Below, piece after piece: positions 3,895 to 9,891 of a stretch of DNA of 9,893 bases (its first letter is position 1; the number at the start of each line of letters is the position of its first letter). A model generated the notes under the pieces. That model did not search any database. It had not been told where the DNA came from and saw only the letters and a list, made by a program, of their open reading frames with translations. The DNA lies in the NCBI GenBank assembly GCA_041640575.1, contig JBEPZZ010000064.1, positions 1 to 9,893 on the forward strand, given 5' to 3'. The position numbers and the translations under genes are program-made. The DNA comes from Pseudothermotoga sp. (GTDB taxonomy: Bacteria > Thermotogota > Thermotogae > Thermotogales > DSM-5069).

Positions 3895-6800
3895 TCAGTT
3901 TTGGTCGACGTCTGTACTTGTCGGATCGATCTTTGAGACTAGCGCTTGCCTGAGAAAATAACTCAGTAATGGACGATATTCTTCTGTGACGATTAGGTGT
4001 TCATTCTCGATACGTATCAATTGATCGCCGAGAATATCAAGTGAACGATTGTTGAGGTCGTCTAGAATGACGTTCAAGAACTGCCCCTGTAAAATGCTAT
4101 GAAAGTCAGATTCGTGCTGTTCCCAACCAGACTGCTTAAGTAATACCAGTATTTTTATGGCTGTTTCATCAGATGACAGCACATCAAGGAGACCTTGAAG
4201 TATTTTCTCGGACGAGTCGGGTATTTCTTGAGGGCTGTCGATCATGATTTCTTCTGAGACTGAAGACGATGAAGTCGCATCTTCTGTATTTAAGCCAACT
4301 GGCATTTCCTTGCTTTCGCCAACTGCTAGCAACCTCTCGCGCACAGCCTCTGACTGAGCTATCAAGTTATTAACCAAAGTGTAGTCGATAGTCATGTTTT
4401 CGTTATAAGACATGACAATTGTGTTACAGTTAGGATAATTCGTATTGAGCCAGTTGAGCGTCCAGTCATCTTGAGTGAAGAGAATGAACTGCATGTTAGA
4501 AGATTGATTAATTAAATAGGTCAAAATATTAACTTTGCGATTACGATCACAGTGTACAAATGGATCGTCCAACAGCATCGGTAGCGGCTCAGCTGATTGG
4601 CTCATCAACTGTGCAATACTAAACCGTAGGAGGAGATACACCAGATCGCGTGTGCCCGTGCTTAGTTGATCGACGTAAACCCACTGTTGGGTTTCAGGGG
4701 CAAGTAATCTAACAATAAGCGTCTCAGGATCAACGAGACTTTCAGTATAACGTCCTCCAGTGGCGTGGCTCAGACCACTATTCAGATAAGCTTGCAAACG
4801 AGGTGTAAATTGCTTCTGAAAAGTTGTGGATGCTTTCGCCAGTTCAGTCTGGGCTGTTTGCAGAGCTTCACCGAACCATTCCAGCCTTTTTAGTTCGGCA
4901 GTAGCCTCAGCATACTCTTCAAGGAGGCTTGCAAGATCAATCATGCTCTCTGACGCCTGTTTGGCTTCATTTGTCAGCATGACTTGTCTTTGCTTCATAT
5001 CTTGAATTTGTTGTTGTAATTTCTCGACTATGCTTTGGTAGTAATCGGTTGCTTCAACAGGCTTTAAAGATTCTGCATCAGGATTTTGATCGACAAGTGT
5101 TTGGAGTTGGCGTTCCAAATCTTCACGTTGTTTGGTTAGTTTATCAGGTTGGAAGGGAAATTCTTGGAGACGCCTCTCAGCCACCCGTGCCTCACGATCT
5201 GCGTTCTGCCAAGCAACATAGTTTTCGCGTTCAGATTTGTAATGCTCTAATTTTTCTTCCCAGCTCAGAGTGTCGTTGATTTTCGCCTCTTTATACAGTT
5301 CATGCAAATTTTGAAGAACTTGCTCATACTCCTCATTTTTGCGTCGCCTTTTAGCATCCTCATCAGCAGCATCCTTAATTTGAGTCTCAACATCTGAGAG
5401 ACGTTGCCTCAGCATATGGATTTGTTGATGCTCAACCTCAATGTCTTGGTCATGTCGAATTCCTTCAGGTAGAATGTCGTTAAGTTGTTCTTCCAAAGAT
5501 TTGAGTAACCTTTCAGCTTCCTGTGAAGCTGTTCTCGCCTCTTCCAGATTGTGACTAGCAACTTCGCTTGCTGTGACATTTTTCAGGTATTCGTCAATTT
5601 TAGCCGAAGCCTGCTCAAAGATTTTTGCTTCAATGGGAATATCGTCAACGCATAGTTCACGTCTCACTCTAGCTTCAACATCATTTTTTAACTGTTCAGA
5701 CTTCTTTACTGATTCTTGTGCATTCTTCCACTGAGTGTAAATGGGTAGCAAGTCGTTATATATAGCTATCTCACTCGGCGCAGAATTCTCTGTTTTGGCT
5801 TTGCGCTTTAGTGGATTGCATCCCTTTTTGTGGGGAACATCTAGAGGAGTATTTTTTAGGGCAAGAAATGCTGATTCTTCGATGTTTGCCCGTTTCCATT
5901 CTGCTGTATAAAACTCTACATCTGCCAATGATTTAGCTACATCTTTTTGAGCCGATTCATACAACTGCTGAAGTTTAGCCAGAGAGCTATGACCCATTTC
6001 GACATATCTGAATTCGCTTTGTAGCCTCGCCACAACGGATTGGGCTTTATCGACTTCAGCTTGAAGTTTTTCAACTTGTCTGTGAGCAGCCTCTACGGCT
6101 TGAGTGGCTTTTTCAATTTCCTTTTTCTTGGCGCTAATCCTATGAATAAGTTCAACTGGTAGGCTTTTGAAATTCTCAATTTGGGCAGTTAGATTCTGTT
6201 GTTCTTTTCTGAGTATCTCAAGTTTGTTTGATAGATTTGGACGTTCTGCGTCAGCCTCCAATGAAATGCGTCTAGCATCAAGGTCTAGTAATTGCTCGTA
6301 GATGTCATAGCGAAAATCACTCCACTTCTGAAGATCAGTGACTTTCCGTTTGGCTTCATCAGCTTCTAGTTGCAAGCTTGCAATGCGGTTGAGGGTTTCG
6401 GTAATATCGCTTAGCCTAGATTTCAATAAAAGTATTTGAGAGTCGGAATATTGCTTTTCTAACTGGGTTATATCCGCTTCACTCGTATTGACAGACGTTA
6501 AAACTTCCCAACTTTTTTTACGAGTTGCTCTTGCATCGTCTATGGCTTTTTTGAGTTGTTCAACACGTTTTTTAGTTACTGCAAGAGGTTTAGAGTGGGC
6601 ACGGGGTGTGCCTACTTTTTGCTTGAGGGTTATTTCGAGAAGTTCAAGGGCTTTATTTACAGTAAATCCATCTTTGGCCATTGTTGATGAAAGCCGCATA
6701 ATGGTTTCTGCAATCGGAATCGCGGATTGTTCAAGCAAAGCGAGTTCAGACTGCCGAACTATACAAACGTTTTCGAAGACATACTTGCCAATACCAAGTT

Positions 6801-7191
6801 GCTCCTCTGCAAAATAGAGCCGTCCGTGACTCTCAGCTCGAAACGTATCTGTAAGATTTCGCTGGTCGGACATTCGTATGAGAGTGGTTGAGATTTCTGG
6901 GGCAAAAGTACGTCGAATCTCAAAGGCTTCCCCGTTACTTAATCTGTATTTCAGTGTACCGCCGAAAGCTTCCATGTGAGACCATGGTTTATATCGATTG
7001 AGGGTATCATGATCCTTGGACGATATACGTCCAGTATCGAAAAAGCCGTAAAGCATTATTGCAACGGCTTCCATCAACGTTGATTTTCCTACTTCGTTTG
7101 GGCCATATACAAGATTCAAGCCTGATTTAAAGTCAAACGAACGATCTACCAGTTGGCGAAATCCCAACAGATCAATCTGGGTCAATTGCAT
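3895..7191 (-). CDS. Rad50/SbcC/YhaN-like coiled-coil ABC-ATPase fused to a C-terminal TerB_C-like domain (1098 aa)
   Basis: Walker A GPNEVGKST, Q-loop region CIVRQSEL, about 600 aa of heptad-rich helical sequence, signature QLSTGTRD, Walker B/D-loop PMLLDDPFVHCD. The last ~166 aa (3895-4395) are homologous to the C-terminus of the ORF at 8503-9891. SD GAGGTGAT upstream; 20-bp overlap with the phosphoesterase gene. Confidence 0.88.
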   Translation of the reverse strand: MQLTQIDLLGFRQLVDRSFDFKSGLNLVYGPNEVGKSTLMEAVAIMLYGFFDTGRISSKDHDTLNRYKPWSHMEAFGGTLKYRLSNGEAFEIRRTFAPEISTTLIRMSDQRNLTDTFRAESHGRLYFAEEQLGIGKYVFENVCIVRQSELALLEQSAIPIAETIMRLSSTMAKDGFTVNKALELLEITLKQKVGTPRAHSKPLAVTKKRVEQLKKAIDDARATRKKSWEVLTSVNTSEADITQLEKQYSDSQILLLKSRLSDITETLNRIASLQLEADEAKRKVTDLQKWSDFRYDIYEQLLDLDARRISLEADAERPNLSNKLEILRKEQQNLTAQIENFKSLPVELIHRISAKKKEIEKATQAVEAAHRQVEKLQAEVDKAQSVVARLQSEFRYVEMGHSSLAKLQQLYESAQKDVAKSLADVEFYTAEWKRANIEESAFLALKNTPLDVPHKKGCNPLKRKAKTENSAPSEIAIYNDLLPIYTQWKNAQESVKKSEQLKNDVEARVRRELCVDDIPIEAKIFEQASAKIDEYLKNVTASEVASHNLEEARTASQEAERLLKSLEEQLNDILPEGIRHDQDIEVEHQQIHMLRQRLSDVETQIKDAADEDAKRRRKNEEYEQVLQNLHELYKEAKINDTLSWEEKLEHYKSERENYVAWQNADREARVAERRLQEFPFQPDKLTKQREDLERQLQTLVDQNPDAESLKPVEATDYYQSIVEKLQQQIQDMKQRQVMLTNEAKQASESMIDLASLLEEYAEATAELKRLEWFGEALQTAQTELAKASTTFQKQFTPRLQAYLNSGLSHATGGRYTESLVDPETLIVRLLAPETQQWVYVDQLSTGTRDLVYLLLRFSIAQLMSQSAEPLPMLLDDPFVHCDRNRKVNILTYLINQSSNMQFILFTQDDWTLNWLNTNYPNCNTIVMSYNENMTIDYTLVNNLIAQSEAVRERLLAVGESKEMPVGLNTEDATSSSSVSEEIMIDSPQEIPDSSEKILQGLLDVLSSDETAIKILVLLKQSGWEQHESDFHSILQGQFLNVILDDLNNRSLDILGDQLIRIENEHLIVTEEYRPLLSYFLRQALVSKIDPTSTDVDQN
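3974..3996. repeat. 23-bp perfect direct repeat, copy 1 (cgatattcttctgtgacgattag)
   Basis: Identical to 8531-8553. Encodes LIVTEEY(R) on the minus strand, inside the duplicated TerB_C-like domain. Confidence 0.95.
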
Positions 7192-8266
7192 TTGTTATCA
7201 CCTCTACACCATCTAGTGCTTGCATAGCGACATGCAAAGCATTATGAATCCGAGACCGATCTTCTGGATTTGTTTCTTGCAAACAATCCAAGAATTGCTT
7301 TGCAAGAAAGCCGCGTACAGTCGGTTCCTTTGCAAGCATTTCTAGATCATAAGGAACGTTTAATCGTGTGACAAATCTTATAGGTTCTTCAATTATTTCA
7401 CCCAAGTAAGAAACATCAATTGCACATTGCGGTGCACCTGTGAGCATAATTGTAAGATGGTGTGGCTGTTTCATATGGTTTCTAATCACTTTACGAACCT
7501 TTTCTTCAACACAACCCATATCTTTGCATCCCGATAAATCCACATCTACTGAGTAATACTGCCAACGGCCAGTTTGGATAAATTCAGTCCGAGTGTTACC
7601 CTGCTCGACAGTAATTAATGTAATGCCATGCTCTCTACTATCAGCTGCAGGTTCAATAGATTCAGGACTGCCTGACATGACACCGTTTGGGAAAGTATGG
7701 TGTTGGTGCTCTCCACCAAGAAGAGCAAAATCCATACCACTGTGTTTTAGTATCTCCTGATTGAGAAAAGAATCATTTGGATTTTGAGCACTAGGATAAT
7801 GAAGAAGGAGCAGATTTATTCCTTCGTTTCGCTCCCACGAACCTAGAAGATCAGTCAAGGGTATATATGGATAAGCCGCTCCCCACACAGTCATTTCAGG
7901 ATTCAATCGGAATGGACTCAGTGTTTGGGTAGTAAAGATATGAACATTGGCTGGGAAACGCCAACGAGAATATAAAGAGTCTTGGCCGTATGTATCTGCG
8001 CTTCCGGGGGAAATTAGCACAGGTATTGGAGCAATTTGTTCGAACTGCTCTGAAAGGATCTTCAAAGTTGATGGAGTAACCGTATCTTGTTCAAACAAAT
8101 CACCCGCAATCGTCACCACATCGACGGTTCTGTCAATCGCAATGTCAAAAATTAGTTTTAGAACCTGAATTAGTCCCTCACGTCGAGTCTTTCCAACTGA
8201 AGGAGTTAGGCCAGCATCTGCAAACGAACGATCTAGATGTAGATCTGCAAAATGTAAAATTTTCAA
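7172..8266 (-). CDS. Mre11/SbcD/YhaO-like calcineurin-type metallophosphoesterase with degenerate active-site motifs (364 aa)
   Basis: MKILHFADLHLD (motif I), AGDLFE (II), PGSAD (III, canonical GNHD), LLLLH (IV), ALLGGEH (V, canonical GHxH), SGSPE. TTG start with SD GAGGTG 8 nt upstream. Lies directly upstream of the Rad50-like gene, as in sbcD-sbcC and yhaO-yhaN pairs. Confidence 0.87.
   Translation of the reverse strand: MKILHFADLHLDRSFADAGLTPSVGKTRREGLIQVLKLIFDIAIDRTVDVVTIAGDLFEQDTVTPSTLKILSEQFEQIAPIPVLISPGSADTYGQDSLYSRWRFPANVHIFTTQTLSPFRLNPEMTVWGAAYPYIPLTDLLGSWERNEGINLLLLHYPSAQNPNDSFLNQEILKHSGMDFALLGGEHQHHTFPNGVMSGSPESIEPAADSREHGITLITVEQGNTRTEFIQTGRWQYYSVDVDLSGCKDMGCVEEKVRKVIRNHMKQPHHLTIMLTGAPQCAIDVSYLGEIIEEPIRFVTRLNVPYDLEMLAKEPTVRGFLAKQFLDCLQETNPEDRSRIHNALHVAMQALDGVEVITNAIDPD
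7197..7204 (-). promoter_or_regulatory. Shine-Dalgarno GAGGTGAT for the Rad50-like gene
   Basis: gaggtgataacaaATG, inside the 3' end of the phosphoesterase gene. Confidence 0.7.
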
Positions 8267-8274
8267 ATCCTTCG

Positions 8275-8280
8275 CACCTC
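8275..8280 (-). promoter_or_regulatory. Shine-Dalgarno GAGGTG for the metallophosphoesterase
   Basis: 8-nt spacer to TTG at 8266. Confidence 0.7.
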
Positions 8281-8336
8281 AAGCACGTTTTCCAACCGAG
8301 TCTTAGTCTTCTGAAGATAGATCACCTATCTCGACG

Positions 8337-8365
8337 ATATTTCCTAATAACTATATTTCCTAATA
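8337..8365. repeat. Tandem 13-bp direct repeat atatttcctaata x2 (period 16 bp)
   Basis: Exact copies at 8337-8349 and 8353-8365, separated by act, in the 236-bp intergenic region. Confidence 0.9.
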
Positions 8366-8378
8366 CTAAGGAACGCAA
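8350..8378 (-). promoter_or_regulatory. Candidate sigma70-type promoter for the phosphoesterase-to-helicase genes
   Basis: Minus strand TTGCGT (8378-8373), 17-nt spacer, TATAGT (8355-8350). About 83 nt upstream of the TTG start and overlapped by the 13-bp repeats. Consensus match only. Confidence 0.45.
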
Positions 8379-8502
8379 ATTCGTTAATTTTGTTAATCAA
8401 CAAATCAGACGTAGTGCGTACACTTTGTGCAATACCATCCAAGCGCATCATGACATCATCTTTCAATAGCAAAGCGTTGACTCAATGTCCAGCATGAGTG
8501 GG

Positions 8503-9891
8503 CTAATTAAGTAAATGCTCGATTTCACCTCGATATTCTTCTGTGACGATTAGTTCATCATCTTCAATAAAGATCAACTGATCGCCTAGTAATTCAATAG
8601 CGCGTTCGTTGATACGATCAAGCACAACGTTCAGAAACTCACCATTCAAGATATTCTGAGCAAGATCACTGCGCATCTTCCAATTATTTGTCCGTAAATT
8701 ACGTAGCAGATTAATTGCTACCTTGCTTCCTCTTATGACTTTGGCAACTCCTTCAAATTCAGTTGGCAAATGAACAGGCGTATCTGGAGAACGCTCAGTG
8801 TCTAAAACAACAGGAAGGCGTTCATCAGCTTTTTCTAGGCCGTTTTCAGTCACCAGAGCCTTGTTGGCAGTAATCTCACTTTCTTCGTTTACCTGAAGGC
8901 GATTACGGACAGTATCTGACTCTAAGGTAAGTAATTCAACCTTGGCATAATCAATAACCAAGGGCTTATCTGTGGTAATTGTTATTCTATCCTCTATAGA
9001 TGCATCTGATTGTTTACGGATTTTCTGGTCTTGGACAGGGAAGGCTGAATCTAGAATGGCTATCCATTCCGACGGTAATTCGATGCCTTTTAATGTTCCT
9101 CGATAGTTTTGCTGACGTCTCAATCGGTTTTCGATATATTTCAAAGTCGAGGCCATAGCGTTACGCAGATCACTGGCGTTGAGCCAAGCTGGCACATTGG
9201 CAACAGTGATCATTCCATGCTTTCCTTCATAAATAGCTCCTGTAAATGGATAGCGTTTGATTTGGTGTACATCGACCGGACGGTAATAGTTGAACAAAGT
9301 TTTTCCATGCTTTTGACGGAGATATTTATCAATGATATCTAATCCGCGACGGAGTTCCCGATCTATAACTCCGTTGTTATTATGCTGTTGATAGAATTTA
9401 CTATTTGTGTATTTATGACCGCTGATTAATTCGAGCATATCACTAGATAAGTGCATTAAGTTTGCACTACCATCAGACAATAAAGCTTCTATCAAAAGAT
9501 TCCGATCAGTTAGGTGTCCACCGCGTTTAATGGCATAGGAATACCAGTTCATCGGTGTCTGCGGTAGTCTATAGACAACTATAAAGTCTGCTAACCAGTC
9601 GATAAGGTAGCTATCCAGTTCTGGATGCTTTACTCGATAGCGCCTCCAGATATTTGCTAGATGCTCAAAAGCATCCTCCGCTGAGTCAAACCCAATAAGA
9701 TGTATAACCTCGTAAACGTGCAGAAATATATAACTTAGGTCAGTGGGTAAATAGCTGCTGTGCCTTACTTGTGAGCGCCAGTAAAAATACCATTTGCGTT
9801 GAGCACTATTCATGGACTCATATGTGGGCCAGTATTGCTTAAAAGGCGCTGGGTCAGCCTGTCGTTCAGTCGTATTAACAAATTTTTTCGC
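8503..9891 (-). CDS. sngA: TerB_N + TerB_C domain protein, Shango SngA-like (5'-partial; frame open to the window edge)
   Basis: The frame stays open upstream of the tracked Met at 9813 and reads AKKFVNTTERQADPAPFKQYWPTYESMNSAQRKWYFYWR. The YWPtY...Q...Y..W segment and TDLSYIFLHVYE are typical of TerB_N. C-terminal IDY..V..L..ES..VR.RL and LDRINERAIELLGDQLI are typical of TerB_C. The true start is outside the window. Confidence 0.85.
   Translation of the reverse strand, partial: AKKFVNTTERQADPAPFKQYWPTYESMNSAQRKWYFYWRSQVRHSSYLPTDLSYIFLHVYEVIHLIGFDSAEDAFEHLANIWRRYRVKHPELDSYLIDWLADFIVVYRLPQTPMNWYSYAIKRGGHLTDRNLLIEALLSDGSANLMHLSSDMLELISGHKYTNSKFYQQHNNNGVIDRELRRGLDIIDKYLRQKHGKTLFNYYRPVDVHQIKRYPFTGAIYEGKHGMITVANVPAWLNASDLRNAMASTLKYIENRLRRQQNYRGTLKGIELPSEWIAILDSAFPVQDQKIRKQSDASIEDRITITTDKPLVIDYAKVELLTLESDTVRNRLQVNEESEITANKALVTENGLEKADERLPVVLDTERSPDTPVHLPTEFEGVAKVIRGSKVAINLLRNLRTNNWKMRSDLAQNILNGEFLNVVLDRINERAIELLGDQLIFIEDDELIVTEEYRGEIEHLLN
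8531..8553. repeat. 23-bp perfect direct repeat, copy 2 (cgatattcttctgtgacgattag)
   Basis: Identical to 3974-3996; offset 4557 bp. Confidence 0.95.

Follow-up and report, generated by a model that had tools for sequence, protein, structure and literature searches.

A variant Shango locus with an Mre11/SbcD-like subunit of degenerate nuclease site and a Rad50-like ATPase carrying a TerB-C tail

We analysed a stretch of DNA of 9,893 nucleotides (contig JBEPZZ010000064.1, listed as Pseudothermotoga sp.; the whole stretch is called the window below) whose minus strand carries five co-directional genes, encoding in order SngA, an SbcD-like protein (P0001), an SbcC-like protein (P0002), SngB and SngC. 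P0001 belongs to the Mre11/SbcD-like phosphoesterases and has lost part of its nuclease active site; it is the subject of this work, together with its ATPase partner P0002 and the Shango defence genes on either side of them. An earlier reading of the window from its letters (the preliminary description) had placed the gene within a Shango locus, and PADLOC models agree, with E-values of 2.3e-65 for SngA, 4.8e-184 for SngB and 3.8e-236 for SngC, as do the Pfam domains. No PADLOC model matches P0001, and those that match P0002 do so in the head domain only (LmuB, AriA and others). In the published text available to us, Shango consists of three genes and its mechanism is not described. The window resembles this canonical system in encoding SngA, SngB and SngC together and in the same relative order. 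However, it departs from the three-gene architecture in that the SbcD-like and SbcC-like genes are placed between sngA and sngB and a second TerB-C domain is present on the SbcC-like protein.

The open reading frame (ORF) of P0001 is intact and has a good ribosome-binding site (GAGGTG, 8 nt upstream of its TTG start), as the preliminary description had stated. The start of P0002 overlaps the stop of P0001 by 20 nt, and the two genes are translationally coupled. The same description had read motif III of the phosphoesterase as GSAD rather than GNHD and motif V as GGEH rather than GHxH, and had listed motifs I, II and IV and a GSPE string as remaining. Direct reading of the DNA and the alignments agree with it to the letter (Table 1), the last string being G199-S-P-E202. 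A phmmer search against the Protein Data Bank (PDB) aligns GSAD of P0001 onto GNHD of Pyrococcus furiosus Mre11 (1ii7, 4hd0). A family profile built from 120 relatives aligns its 'lGhyH' onto LGHIH of Thermotoga maritima Mre11 (E 1.2e-17), and therefore G185 of P0001 occupies the position of the first motif V His. Directly after GGEH come Q188, H189 and H190, so that H187-Q-H189 forms an H-x-H string two residues out of register, but this string is not conserved as His, position 189 being H in six and Y in three of the nine closest proteins described below.

The fold of P0001 is that of Mre11. Pfam Metallophos matches residues 1–188 with 31.6 bits (cut-off 21.5), and an AlphaFold2 model from a 120-row alignment has a predicted local distance difference test score (pLDDT) of 89.4 and a predicted template modelling score (pTM) of 0.84. 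All of the top matches listed by Foldseek against the PDB are Mre11 or SbcD proteins, with template modelling scores of about 0.55–0.64, and the matches extend along the whole protein, C-terminal helices included; the best is Mre11 (3tho_B, E 4e-15), and E. coli SbcD (7yzo_B) is found with E 6.5e-12. Identity to these solved structures is only 13–20%, and the NCBIfam SbcD model (TIGR00619) gives 41.2 bits, below its cut-off of 77.65 and over residues 1–113 only. Thus P0001 has the fold and motifs I, II and IV of the family, and lacks the GNH[D/E] of motif III, the GHxH of motif V and a qualifying TIGR00619 score. Because it fails two defining catalytic motifs as well as the curated SbcD score, we call it Mre11/SbcD-like rather than SbcD.

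Table 1. Genes, domains and active-site motifs of the locus (window positions).
Feature	Positions	Strand	Basis or remark
SngA-like TerB-N/TerB-C protein (P0005)	8503..9891	-	5' end beyond window edge
Decayed remnant of the sngA 3' end, resembling an intergenic spacer	8267..8502	-	Alignment to L001 SngA
Mre11/SbcD-like metallophosphoesterase subunit P0001, 364 aa, TTG start, degenerate active site	7172..8266	-	Pfam, fold, alignments
SbcC/Rad50-like SMC-type ATPase P0002, 1098 aa	3895..7191	-	Pfam AAA_23, AAA_27, SMC_N
TerB-C domain at the P0002 C-terminus, residues 925-1098	3898..4419	-	Pfam TerB_C, SngA identity
SngB, BrxC/BrxD-type ATPase, P0003	2511..3878	-	PADLOC SngB; Pfam PF10923
SngC, DEAD/DEAH Lhr-like helicase, P0004	247..2514	-	PADLOC SngC
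P0001 motif I, D8-L-H10, intact	8237..8245	-	Invariant in 9/9 clade rows
P0001 motif II, G55-D56-L-F-E59, intact	8090..8104	-	
P0001 motif III, G88-S89-A90-D91 (canonical GNHD); metal-ligand Asn and catalytic His both lost	7994..8005	-	
P0001 motif IV, H156, intact	7799..7801	-	
P0001 motif V, G184-G185-E186-H187 (canonical GHxH); first His replaced by Gly, second His kept	7706..7717	-	
P0001 H189, clade-specific H/Y position two residues past H187	7700..7702	-	Possible substitute ligand (inference only)

The residues missing from P0001 are, we take it, the counterparts of Asn84, His206 and His85 of P. furiosus Mre11. In that enzyme D8, H10, D49 and H208 presumably bind one manganese ion, and D49, N84, H173 and H206 the other. 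If these ligand sets are right, one metal site would be fully kept in P0001, while the other would lack two of its four ligands, the catalytic His being gone as well. The available part of one study (PMC3175470) confirms the motif pattern and the involvement of His173, His206 and His208 in P. furiosus Mre11. Engineered proteins offer a comparison. According to the accessible portion of PMC6265447, E. coli SbcD H84Q, which is changed at the motif III His only, is nuclease-deficient, yet its DNA binding persists and about 85% of the ATPase activity remains, and the title of PDB entry 3dsd describes a structure of the P. furiosus Mre11 H85S mutant with DNA and manganese. P0001 resembles both in lacking the motif III His. 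However, in P0001 the change is natural, clade-wide and triple, and takes away two ligands of one metal as well.

The loss is common to all close orthologs of P0001 that were compared. A word-indexed search gave 176 relatives, of which the best 120 are listed, an exhaustive representative search found 3373 at E≤0.001, and a scan at one genome per species confirmed 499, of which the best 80 are treated as loci L001–L080. Full-length proteins of 300–450 aa and locus ORFs of 300–500 aa were pooled into an alignment of 320 rows, from which two duplicates and shorter or longer rows had been removed. Most rows (196) are canonical, with NH in motif III and GH in motif V. Asn89 is replaced and His185 kept in 66, both Asn89 and His185 are missing from 46, Asn is present without the catalytic His in 11, and one row is of another kind. 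Trees were built with the motif columns taken out, using FastTree for the 320 rows and IQ-TREE in quick mode (LG+G4) for 108 rows.

In both trees P0001 falls into a clade of nine rows with a support of 100, namely the window protein, the L001 ORF and P0007 (one and the same gene), P0008, P0009, P0010, P0011, P0126 and P0128; these represent seven distinct proteins besides that of the window and span 37–81% identity. All nine read GxxD in motif III, with K, G, S, R, Q or L at position 89 and T, A or S at position 90, and GG[E/Q]H in motif V, where Gly185 is fixed. The partial protein P0012 (GQSD, GGEH) agrees with this pattern. In contrast to the variable positions of motif III, residues D8, H10, D56, D91, H156 and H187 do not vary among the nine rows. 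The loss is targeted: when positions with a conservation of 85% or more in the 196 canonical relatives are compared, the clade differs from them solely at 89, 90, 185, 206/208/211, 321 and 347, leaving aside columns in which most canonical relatives have a gap and the clade an insertion. Position 189 is H or Y in all nine rows, whereas G or A is found there in most other rows of an enclosing clade of 58 (support 99).

None of the 58 rows of this larger clade has Asn at position 89, which is Glu in 29 of them, and D8, H10, D56, H156 and H187 are kept in 56–57 of the 58 rows and are near-invariant overall. Six further rows without Asn lie outside this clade, in two groups of the IQ-TREE quick tree, and the change has therefore arisen more than once. 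The two ligand positions change together. Across the 320 rows a ligand-type residue (N, E, D or H) at 89 and His185 are both present in 272 and both absent in 38, leaving 10 discordant rows. The ratio of nonsynonymous to synonymous substitution rates (dN/dS) between P0001 and its 81%-identical ortholog in L001 is 0.32 (dS 0.29; Nei-Gojobori), and thus the gene is under purifying selection and is maintained; the same comparison gives 0.35 for sngA and 0.13–0.24 for the SbcC-like gene. Aligning orthologs, as the preliminary description had proposed, thus rules out strain-specific decay of the active site, since the loss is common to all nine rows of the clade and the ORF is under purifying selection.

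The invariance of D8, H10, D56, H156 and H187 in the clade also indicates that a metal- or phosphate-binding pocket is probably retained. The preliminary description had regarded the protein as a dead scaffold; the degeneracy at the positions it named stands, but with these five residues invariant the description is too simple. The main alternative to the explanation that we favour is that P0001 is still an enzyme, acting at the retained metal site (D8, H10, D56 and H187, with H156) and perhaps aided by H/Y189 or E186. It would then be a one-metal or rebuilt phosphoesterase or nuclease of altered substrate or regulation, providing a DNA-cutting effector that is absent from three-gene Shango; in the part of the literature available, canonical Shango has no recognised nuclease. 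Such a role would account for the strict retention of the five residues and for H/Y at 189 and E/Q at 186 in all nine rows, which are unlike the canonical relatives. The Glu that most often takes the place of Asn89 in the larger clade is itself a possible ligand, and its frequency suggests graded remodelling rather than simple death of the site. However, within the nine-row clade neither the position of the catalytic His nor that of the Asn is conserved, and position 186 is the 'x' of GHxH, which we presume to face away from the metals. In addition, as noted above, H84Q alone renders E. coli SbcCD nuclease-deficient. We consider a surviving catalytic function unlikely, although it is the most serious of the alternatives.

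P0002 has the features of an SbcC/Rad50 protein, that is, an ABC-type head with Walker A (GPNEVGKST), signature (LSTGTRD) and Walker B (LLDDP) motifs split by a long coiled coil, with FTQD at the position of the H-loop. We considered whether this partner is degenerate as well and rejected the idea, because LSTGTRD, LLDDP and FTQD are the norm for the family and are found in the partners of canonical SbcD-like proteins too. A CxxC zinc hook occurs nowhere in P0002 or in the related proteins P0269–P0272, and none of 66 locus ORFs has one within 120 residues of the coiled-coil midpoint. At the midpoint P0002 (residues 454–459, window 5815–5832, minus strand) instead has the conserved sequence KKGC(N/K)P, which contains one Cys and no CxxC. 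In some canonical relatives, such as that of L032, long hydrophobic stretches are found at the midpoint, as if inserted into a membrane.

The C-terminal tail of P0002 (174 residues) sets it apart from SbcC. A Pfam scan of the whole protein does not report a TerB_C domain there, but the tail scanned alone matches TerB_C (PF15615) with 27.5 bits against a cut-off of 26.3, and it is 34% identical to the C-terminus of the window SngA (BLASTP, E 1e-21). Among 915 candidates the fusion of SbcC with TerB-C was found in five, the query and four other clusters, with tail identities of 61–80%. A complex prediction of SngB with tail residues 925–1098 gives an interaction score (ipSAE) of 0.76, and the best of three controls gives 0.00. 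A score this high was obtained for 116 of 157 solved complexes and for 2 of 215 mismatched pairs, a calibration that is rough here because custom alignments were used. At least 67% of the contacts agree between runs, the pLDDT of the partner is at least 66, and the confident contacts on SngB involve tail residues 932–957 and 1035–1057, which are the two blocks that the tail has in common with SngA. The prediction supports docking of the TerB-C tail on SngB but does not show it. By analogy, SngA may dock on SngB in the same manner.

The genomic context of the relatives is varied. Shango genes lie near the SbcD-like gene in only two of the best 80 loci, L001 and L046; two others (L021 and L052) have weak helicase matches only, and the remaining 76 consist of the pair alone. 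Motif III reads GNHD in 68 of the 80, and two lack the first motif V His. In L001 SngA is followed by the SbcD-like gene (GGAD, GGEH) and then the SbcC-like gene, and the contig stops before any position where sngB could stand. The SbcC-like gene of L001 looks split into two ORFs (at about 4376–4479), and we rejected a disruption, as the apparent split is merely a run of 100 N and not a lesion. L001 is the only close genome match, a 6-kb contig in a metagenome-assembled genome (MAG) labelled Candidatus Saccharibacteria; the binning of this short contig may be unreliable.

L046, from an Actinomycetes MAG, carries SngA-SngB-SngC followed by an SbcD-like and SbcC-like pair, all on one strand. It resembles the window in its set of genes but differs in their order and in the SbcC-like protein, which has 910 aa and no TerB_C domain by Pfam at E≤0.001. 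Its SbcD-like protein (33% identity) keeps GNHD and GHLH and lies far from the P0001 clade in the tree. The association with Shango is thus not tied to the degenerate state.

For the relatives of the P0001 clade from protein clusters, gene neighbourhood was read from clusters whose longest contigs are equal in size. A size of 14361 is common to the SbcD-like P0009, the SbcC-like P0271 and the SngB P0273. The same holds for P0394, P0269 and P0276 (10954), for the fragment P0395 with P0270 and P0274 (10586), for P0011 and P0281 (12911), and for P0010 and P0393 (29101). Degenerate SbcD-like proteins and SngB are therefore matched on five contig sizes, and SbcC-TerB-C clusters on three of these, which is indirect evidence that the degenerate SbcD-like clade travels with SngB.

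Asn-less relatives from Anaerolineae occur in mixed neighbourhoods without Shango, next to a kinase and large proteins of no assigned family, NB-ARC/TPR proteins, RNase HII/RnlA, glycosidases or AFOR, and no context common to them was found. Two Anaerolineae loci (L003 1–9891 and L011 2–9981) carry Asn-to-Glu pairs behind a conserved upstream trio, consisting of a Ser/Thr kinase of about 900 aa and two proteins of unknown family of about 570 and 1850 aa. L011 has in addition an integrase downstream and an unusually long SbcC-like protein of 1531 aa. The trio and the pair may form another defence-type operon that uses the SbcD-like/SbcC-like module. The nearest named relatives of SngB (78–79% identity) and most SbcD-like relatives come from MAGs of Anaerolineae or Chloroflexota. 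The GC content of the window is 43.8%. Megablast of the window against plasmids gave no match, and tblastn of P0001 against plasmids gave at most 29% identity among the 25 records listed of 114, all 114 being below 60%.

A further proposal of the preliminary description is that the pair is bait. Gam is a phage inhibitor of SbcCD, and TelN is reportedly another phage protein that inhibits it. A dead SbcCD-like pair that mimics the host SbcCD could thus trigger Shango when a Gam-like inhibitor binds to it, and an inactive but well-conserved look-alike of a DNA repair complex, tethered to SngB, is compatible with this idea. However, an identity of 13–20% to solved Mre11/SbcD proteins and an SbcD score below the cut-off make P0001 a poor mimic of SbcCD. 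The family is a distinct, hook-less SMC/Mre11-like lineage in which neither the 66 locus ORFs nor the five fusion proteins have a CxxC, and relatives without the Asn are also found as pairs on their own, away from Shango. The proposal finds no support here, and we regard it as very improbable.

The sngA gene of the window is itself damaged. What looks like a 236-bp spacer upstream of the SbcD-like gene is the remainder of the sngA 3' end, which has decayed; SngA of L001 is about 115 aa longer and its gene overlaps the start of the SbcD-like gene. After ...EIEHLLN the frame of the window gene meets stops, a deletion and a frameshift, but the remnants align, with 73% identity by tblastn through the region. 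The portion lost resembles a second repeat of TerB-C type, Pfam finding two TerB_C stretches in SngA of L001. A metagenomic protein of 715 aa (P0386) shows another rearrangement, in which an SbcD-like domain (GNSD, GGNH) continues in frame into an SngB without about its first 100 residues, the Walker A region included. It looks like a deletion derivative that has lost the SbcC-like gene, or an assembly chimera.

Decay of this kind raises the question of whether the SbcD-like/SbcC-like module is a relic without function, carried along between sngA and sngB until it is lost. The broken sngA 3' end would fit such a history, as would P0386 with its truncated sngB and a dN/dS of 0.32, which is not very low, yet that ratio equals the one for sngA. 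Moreover, the P0001 ORF is intact both in the window and in L001, and its motif pattern has been retained together with about 40 other conserved positions across 37–81% identity. With the 20-nt overlap between the partner genes also preserved and the TerB-C fusion conserved in the four other clusters at the identities given above, we judge such a relic improbable.

In comparison with known systems, the pair is most like Mre11-Rad50 and E. coli SbcCD, with which P0001 has in common the phosphoesterase fold, capping domain and C-terminal helices, motifs I, II and IV and the second motif V His, and P0002 the SMC-like architecture with long coiled coils. It differs from them in the three missing active-site residues and the score below the SbcD cut-off, and, on the side of P0002, in the missing zinc hook, the LLDDP Walker B, FTQD at the H-loop and the TerB-C tail. 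P0002 also partially matches LmuB of Lamassu (E 1.6e-15) and AriA of PARIS (E 4.2e-14). These, with GajA of Gabija, are systems in which an SMC-like DNA sensor is coupled to other effectors, according to the accessible part of a discussion of Lamassu. However, only the head domains match, and in those systems no Mre11-like subunit or TerB-C domain is paired with the ATPase. Inactive calcineurin-like phosphoesterase domains are also kept as scaffolds in the small subunits of DNA polymerases and in Vps29, where most of the metal ligands have been lost. P0001 is like them in keeping the fold and losing catalytic residues, but unlike them it keeps five of the seven ligands.

Our literature searches, which did not cover the 2012 Ter-system paper of Anantharaman, Iyer and Aravind, found no description of an SbcCD/Mre11-like or SbcC-like component of Shango. 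In the accessible portions of the literature that treats both Shango and SbcCD, the latter is named only in connection with Lamassu. A Shango that carries a nuclease-site-degenerate Mre11/Rad50-like module is a new variant, the parts of which belong to known families.

We favour the explanation that P0001 and P0002 form a nuclease-inactive, Mre11/Rad50-like DNA-sensing module that is wired into Shango, to which we give a probability of about one half. One half of the binuclear metal centre of P0001 and its catalytic His would have been lost as a unit, while purifying selection has kept the rest, namely the second metal site, the architecture of dimer and cap, and the helices at the C-terminus to which the Rad50-like partner binds. 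We infer that P0001 would then no longer cut DNA by the canonical two-metal mechanism of Mre11 and would serve as a non-catalytic partner of the P0002 ATPase, or as one that binds only phosphate or metal. Together the two proteins would make up a clamp, driven by ATP, for recognising DNA ends or DNA structures. The TerB-C domain of P0002, presumably copied from SngA, is predicted to dock on SngB, and through this contact the clamp could pass a signal of foreign or broken DNA, or the DNA itself, to the SngB ATPase and the SngC helicase. The stronger form of this account is that a natural Mre11-Rad50-like nuclease has turned into a pure DNA sensor, which has given up cleavage but retains its coiled coils, its ATPase clamp and one metal or phosphate pocket, and is plugged into SngB and SngC by way of a duplicated TerB-C domain. 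We put this form forward tentatively, as possible but rather doubtful.

Several observations weigh against the sensing module. A pure scaffold would have no need of metal ligands, yet five of the seven canonical ones are strictly retained, and the clade-specific H/Y189 and E/Q186 might rebuild a site. P0136, which belongs to the 58-row clade, retains almost none of the metal ligands (DVM, S, GAAD, D and GGRM at the five motifs), and therefore full decay is possible in this family. In the L046 lineage Shango may use a working nuclease. The Shango copy of the window may itself not be fully functional, because the 3' end of its own sngA has decayed. In addition, the complex prediction drew on 104 alignment rows for SngB and only five for the tail, and ortholog gene order beyond L001 rests on matching contig sizes only (P0126 and P0128 excluded).

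The pattern across the P0001 family, in which one metal half-site has been lost as a unit, repeatedly, and the other half-site kept, is a natural experiment on an Mre11 fold that presumably cannot cut. Within Shango, the probable role of P0001, together with its Rad50-like partner, is that of a DNA sensor or adaptor rather than of a DNA-cutting enzyme. How TerB-domain defence proteins such as SngA protect the cell is described as unclear in the accessible part of a 2025 preprint. This rare five-gene variant points to TerB-C as a docking module for SngB and to DNA ends or structures as an input to Shango. If this is correct, Shango would use TerB-C as the adaptor that binds SngB and would have DNA ends or structures as a trigger, which would provide a first mechanistic handle on the system.

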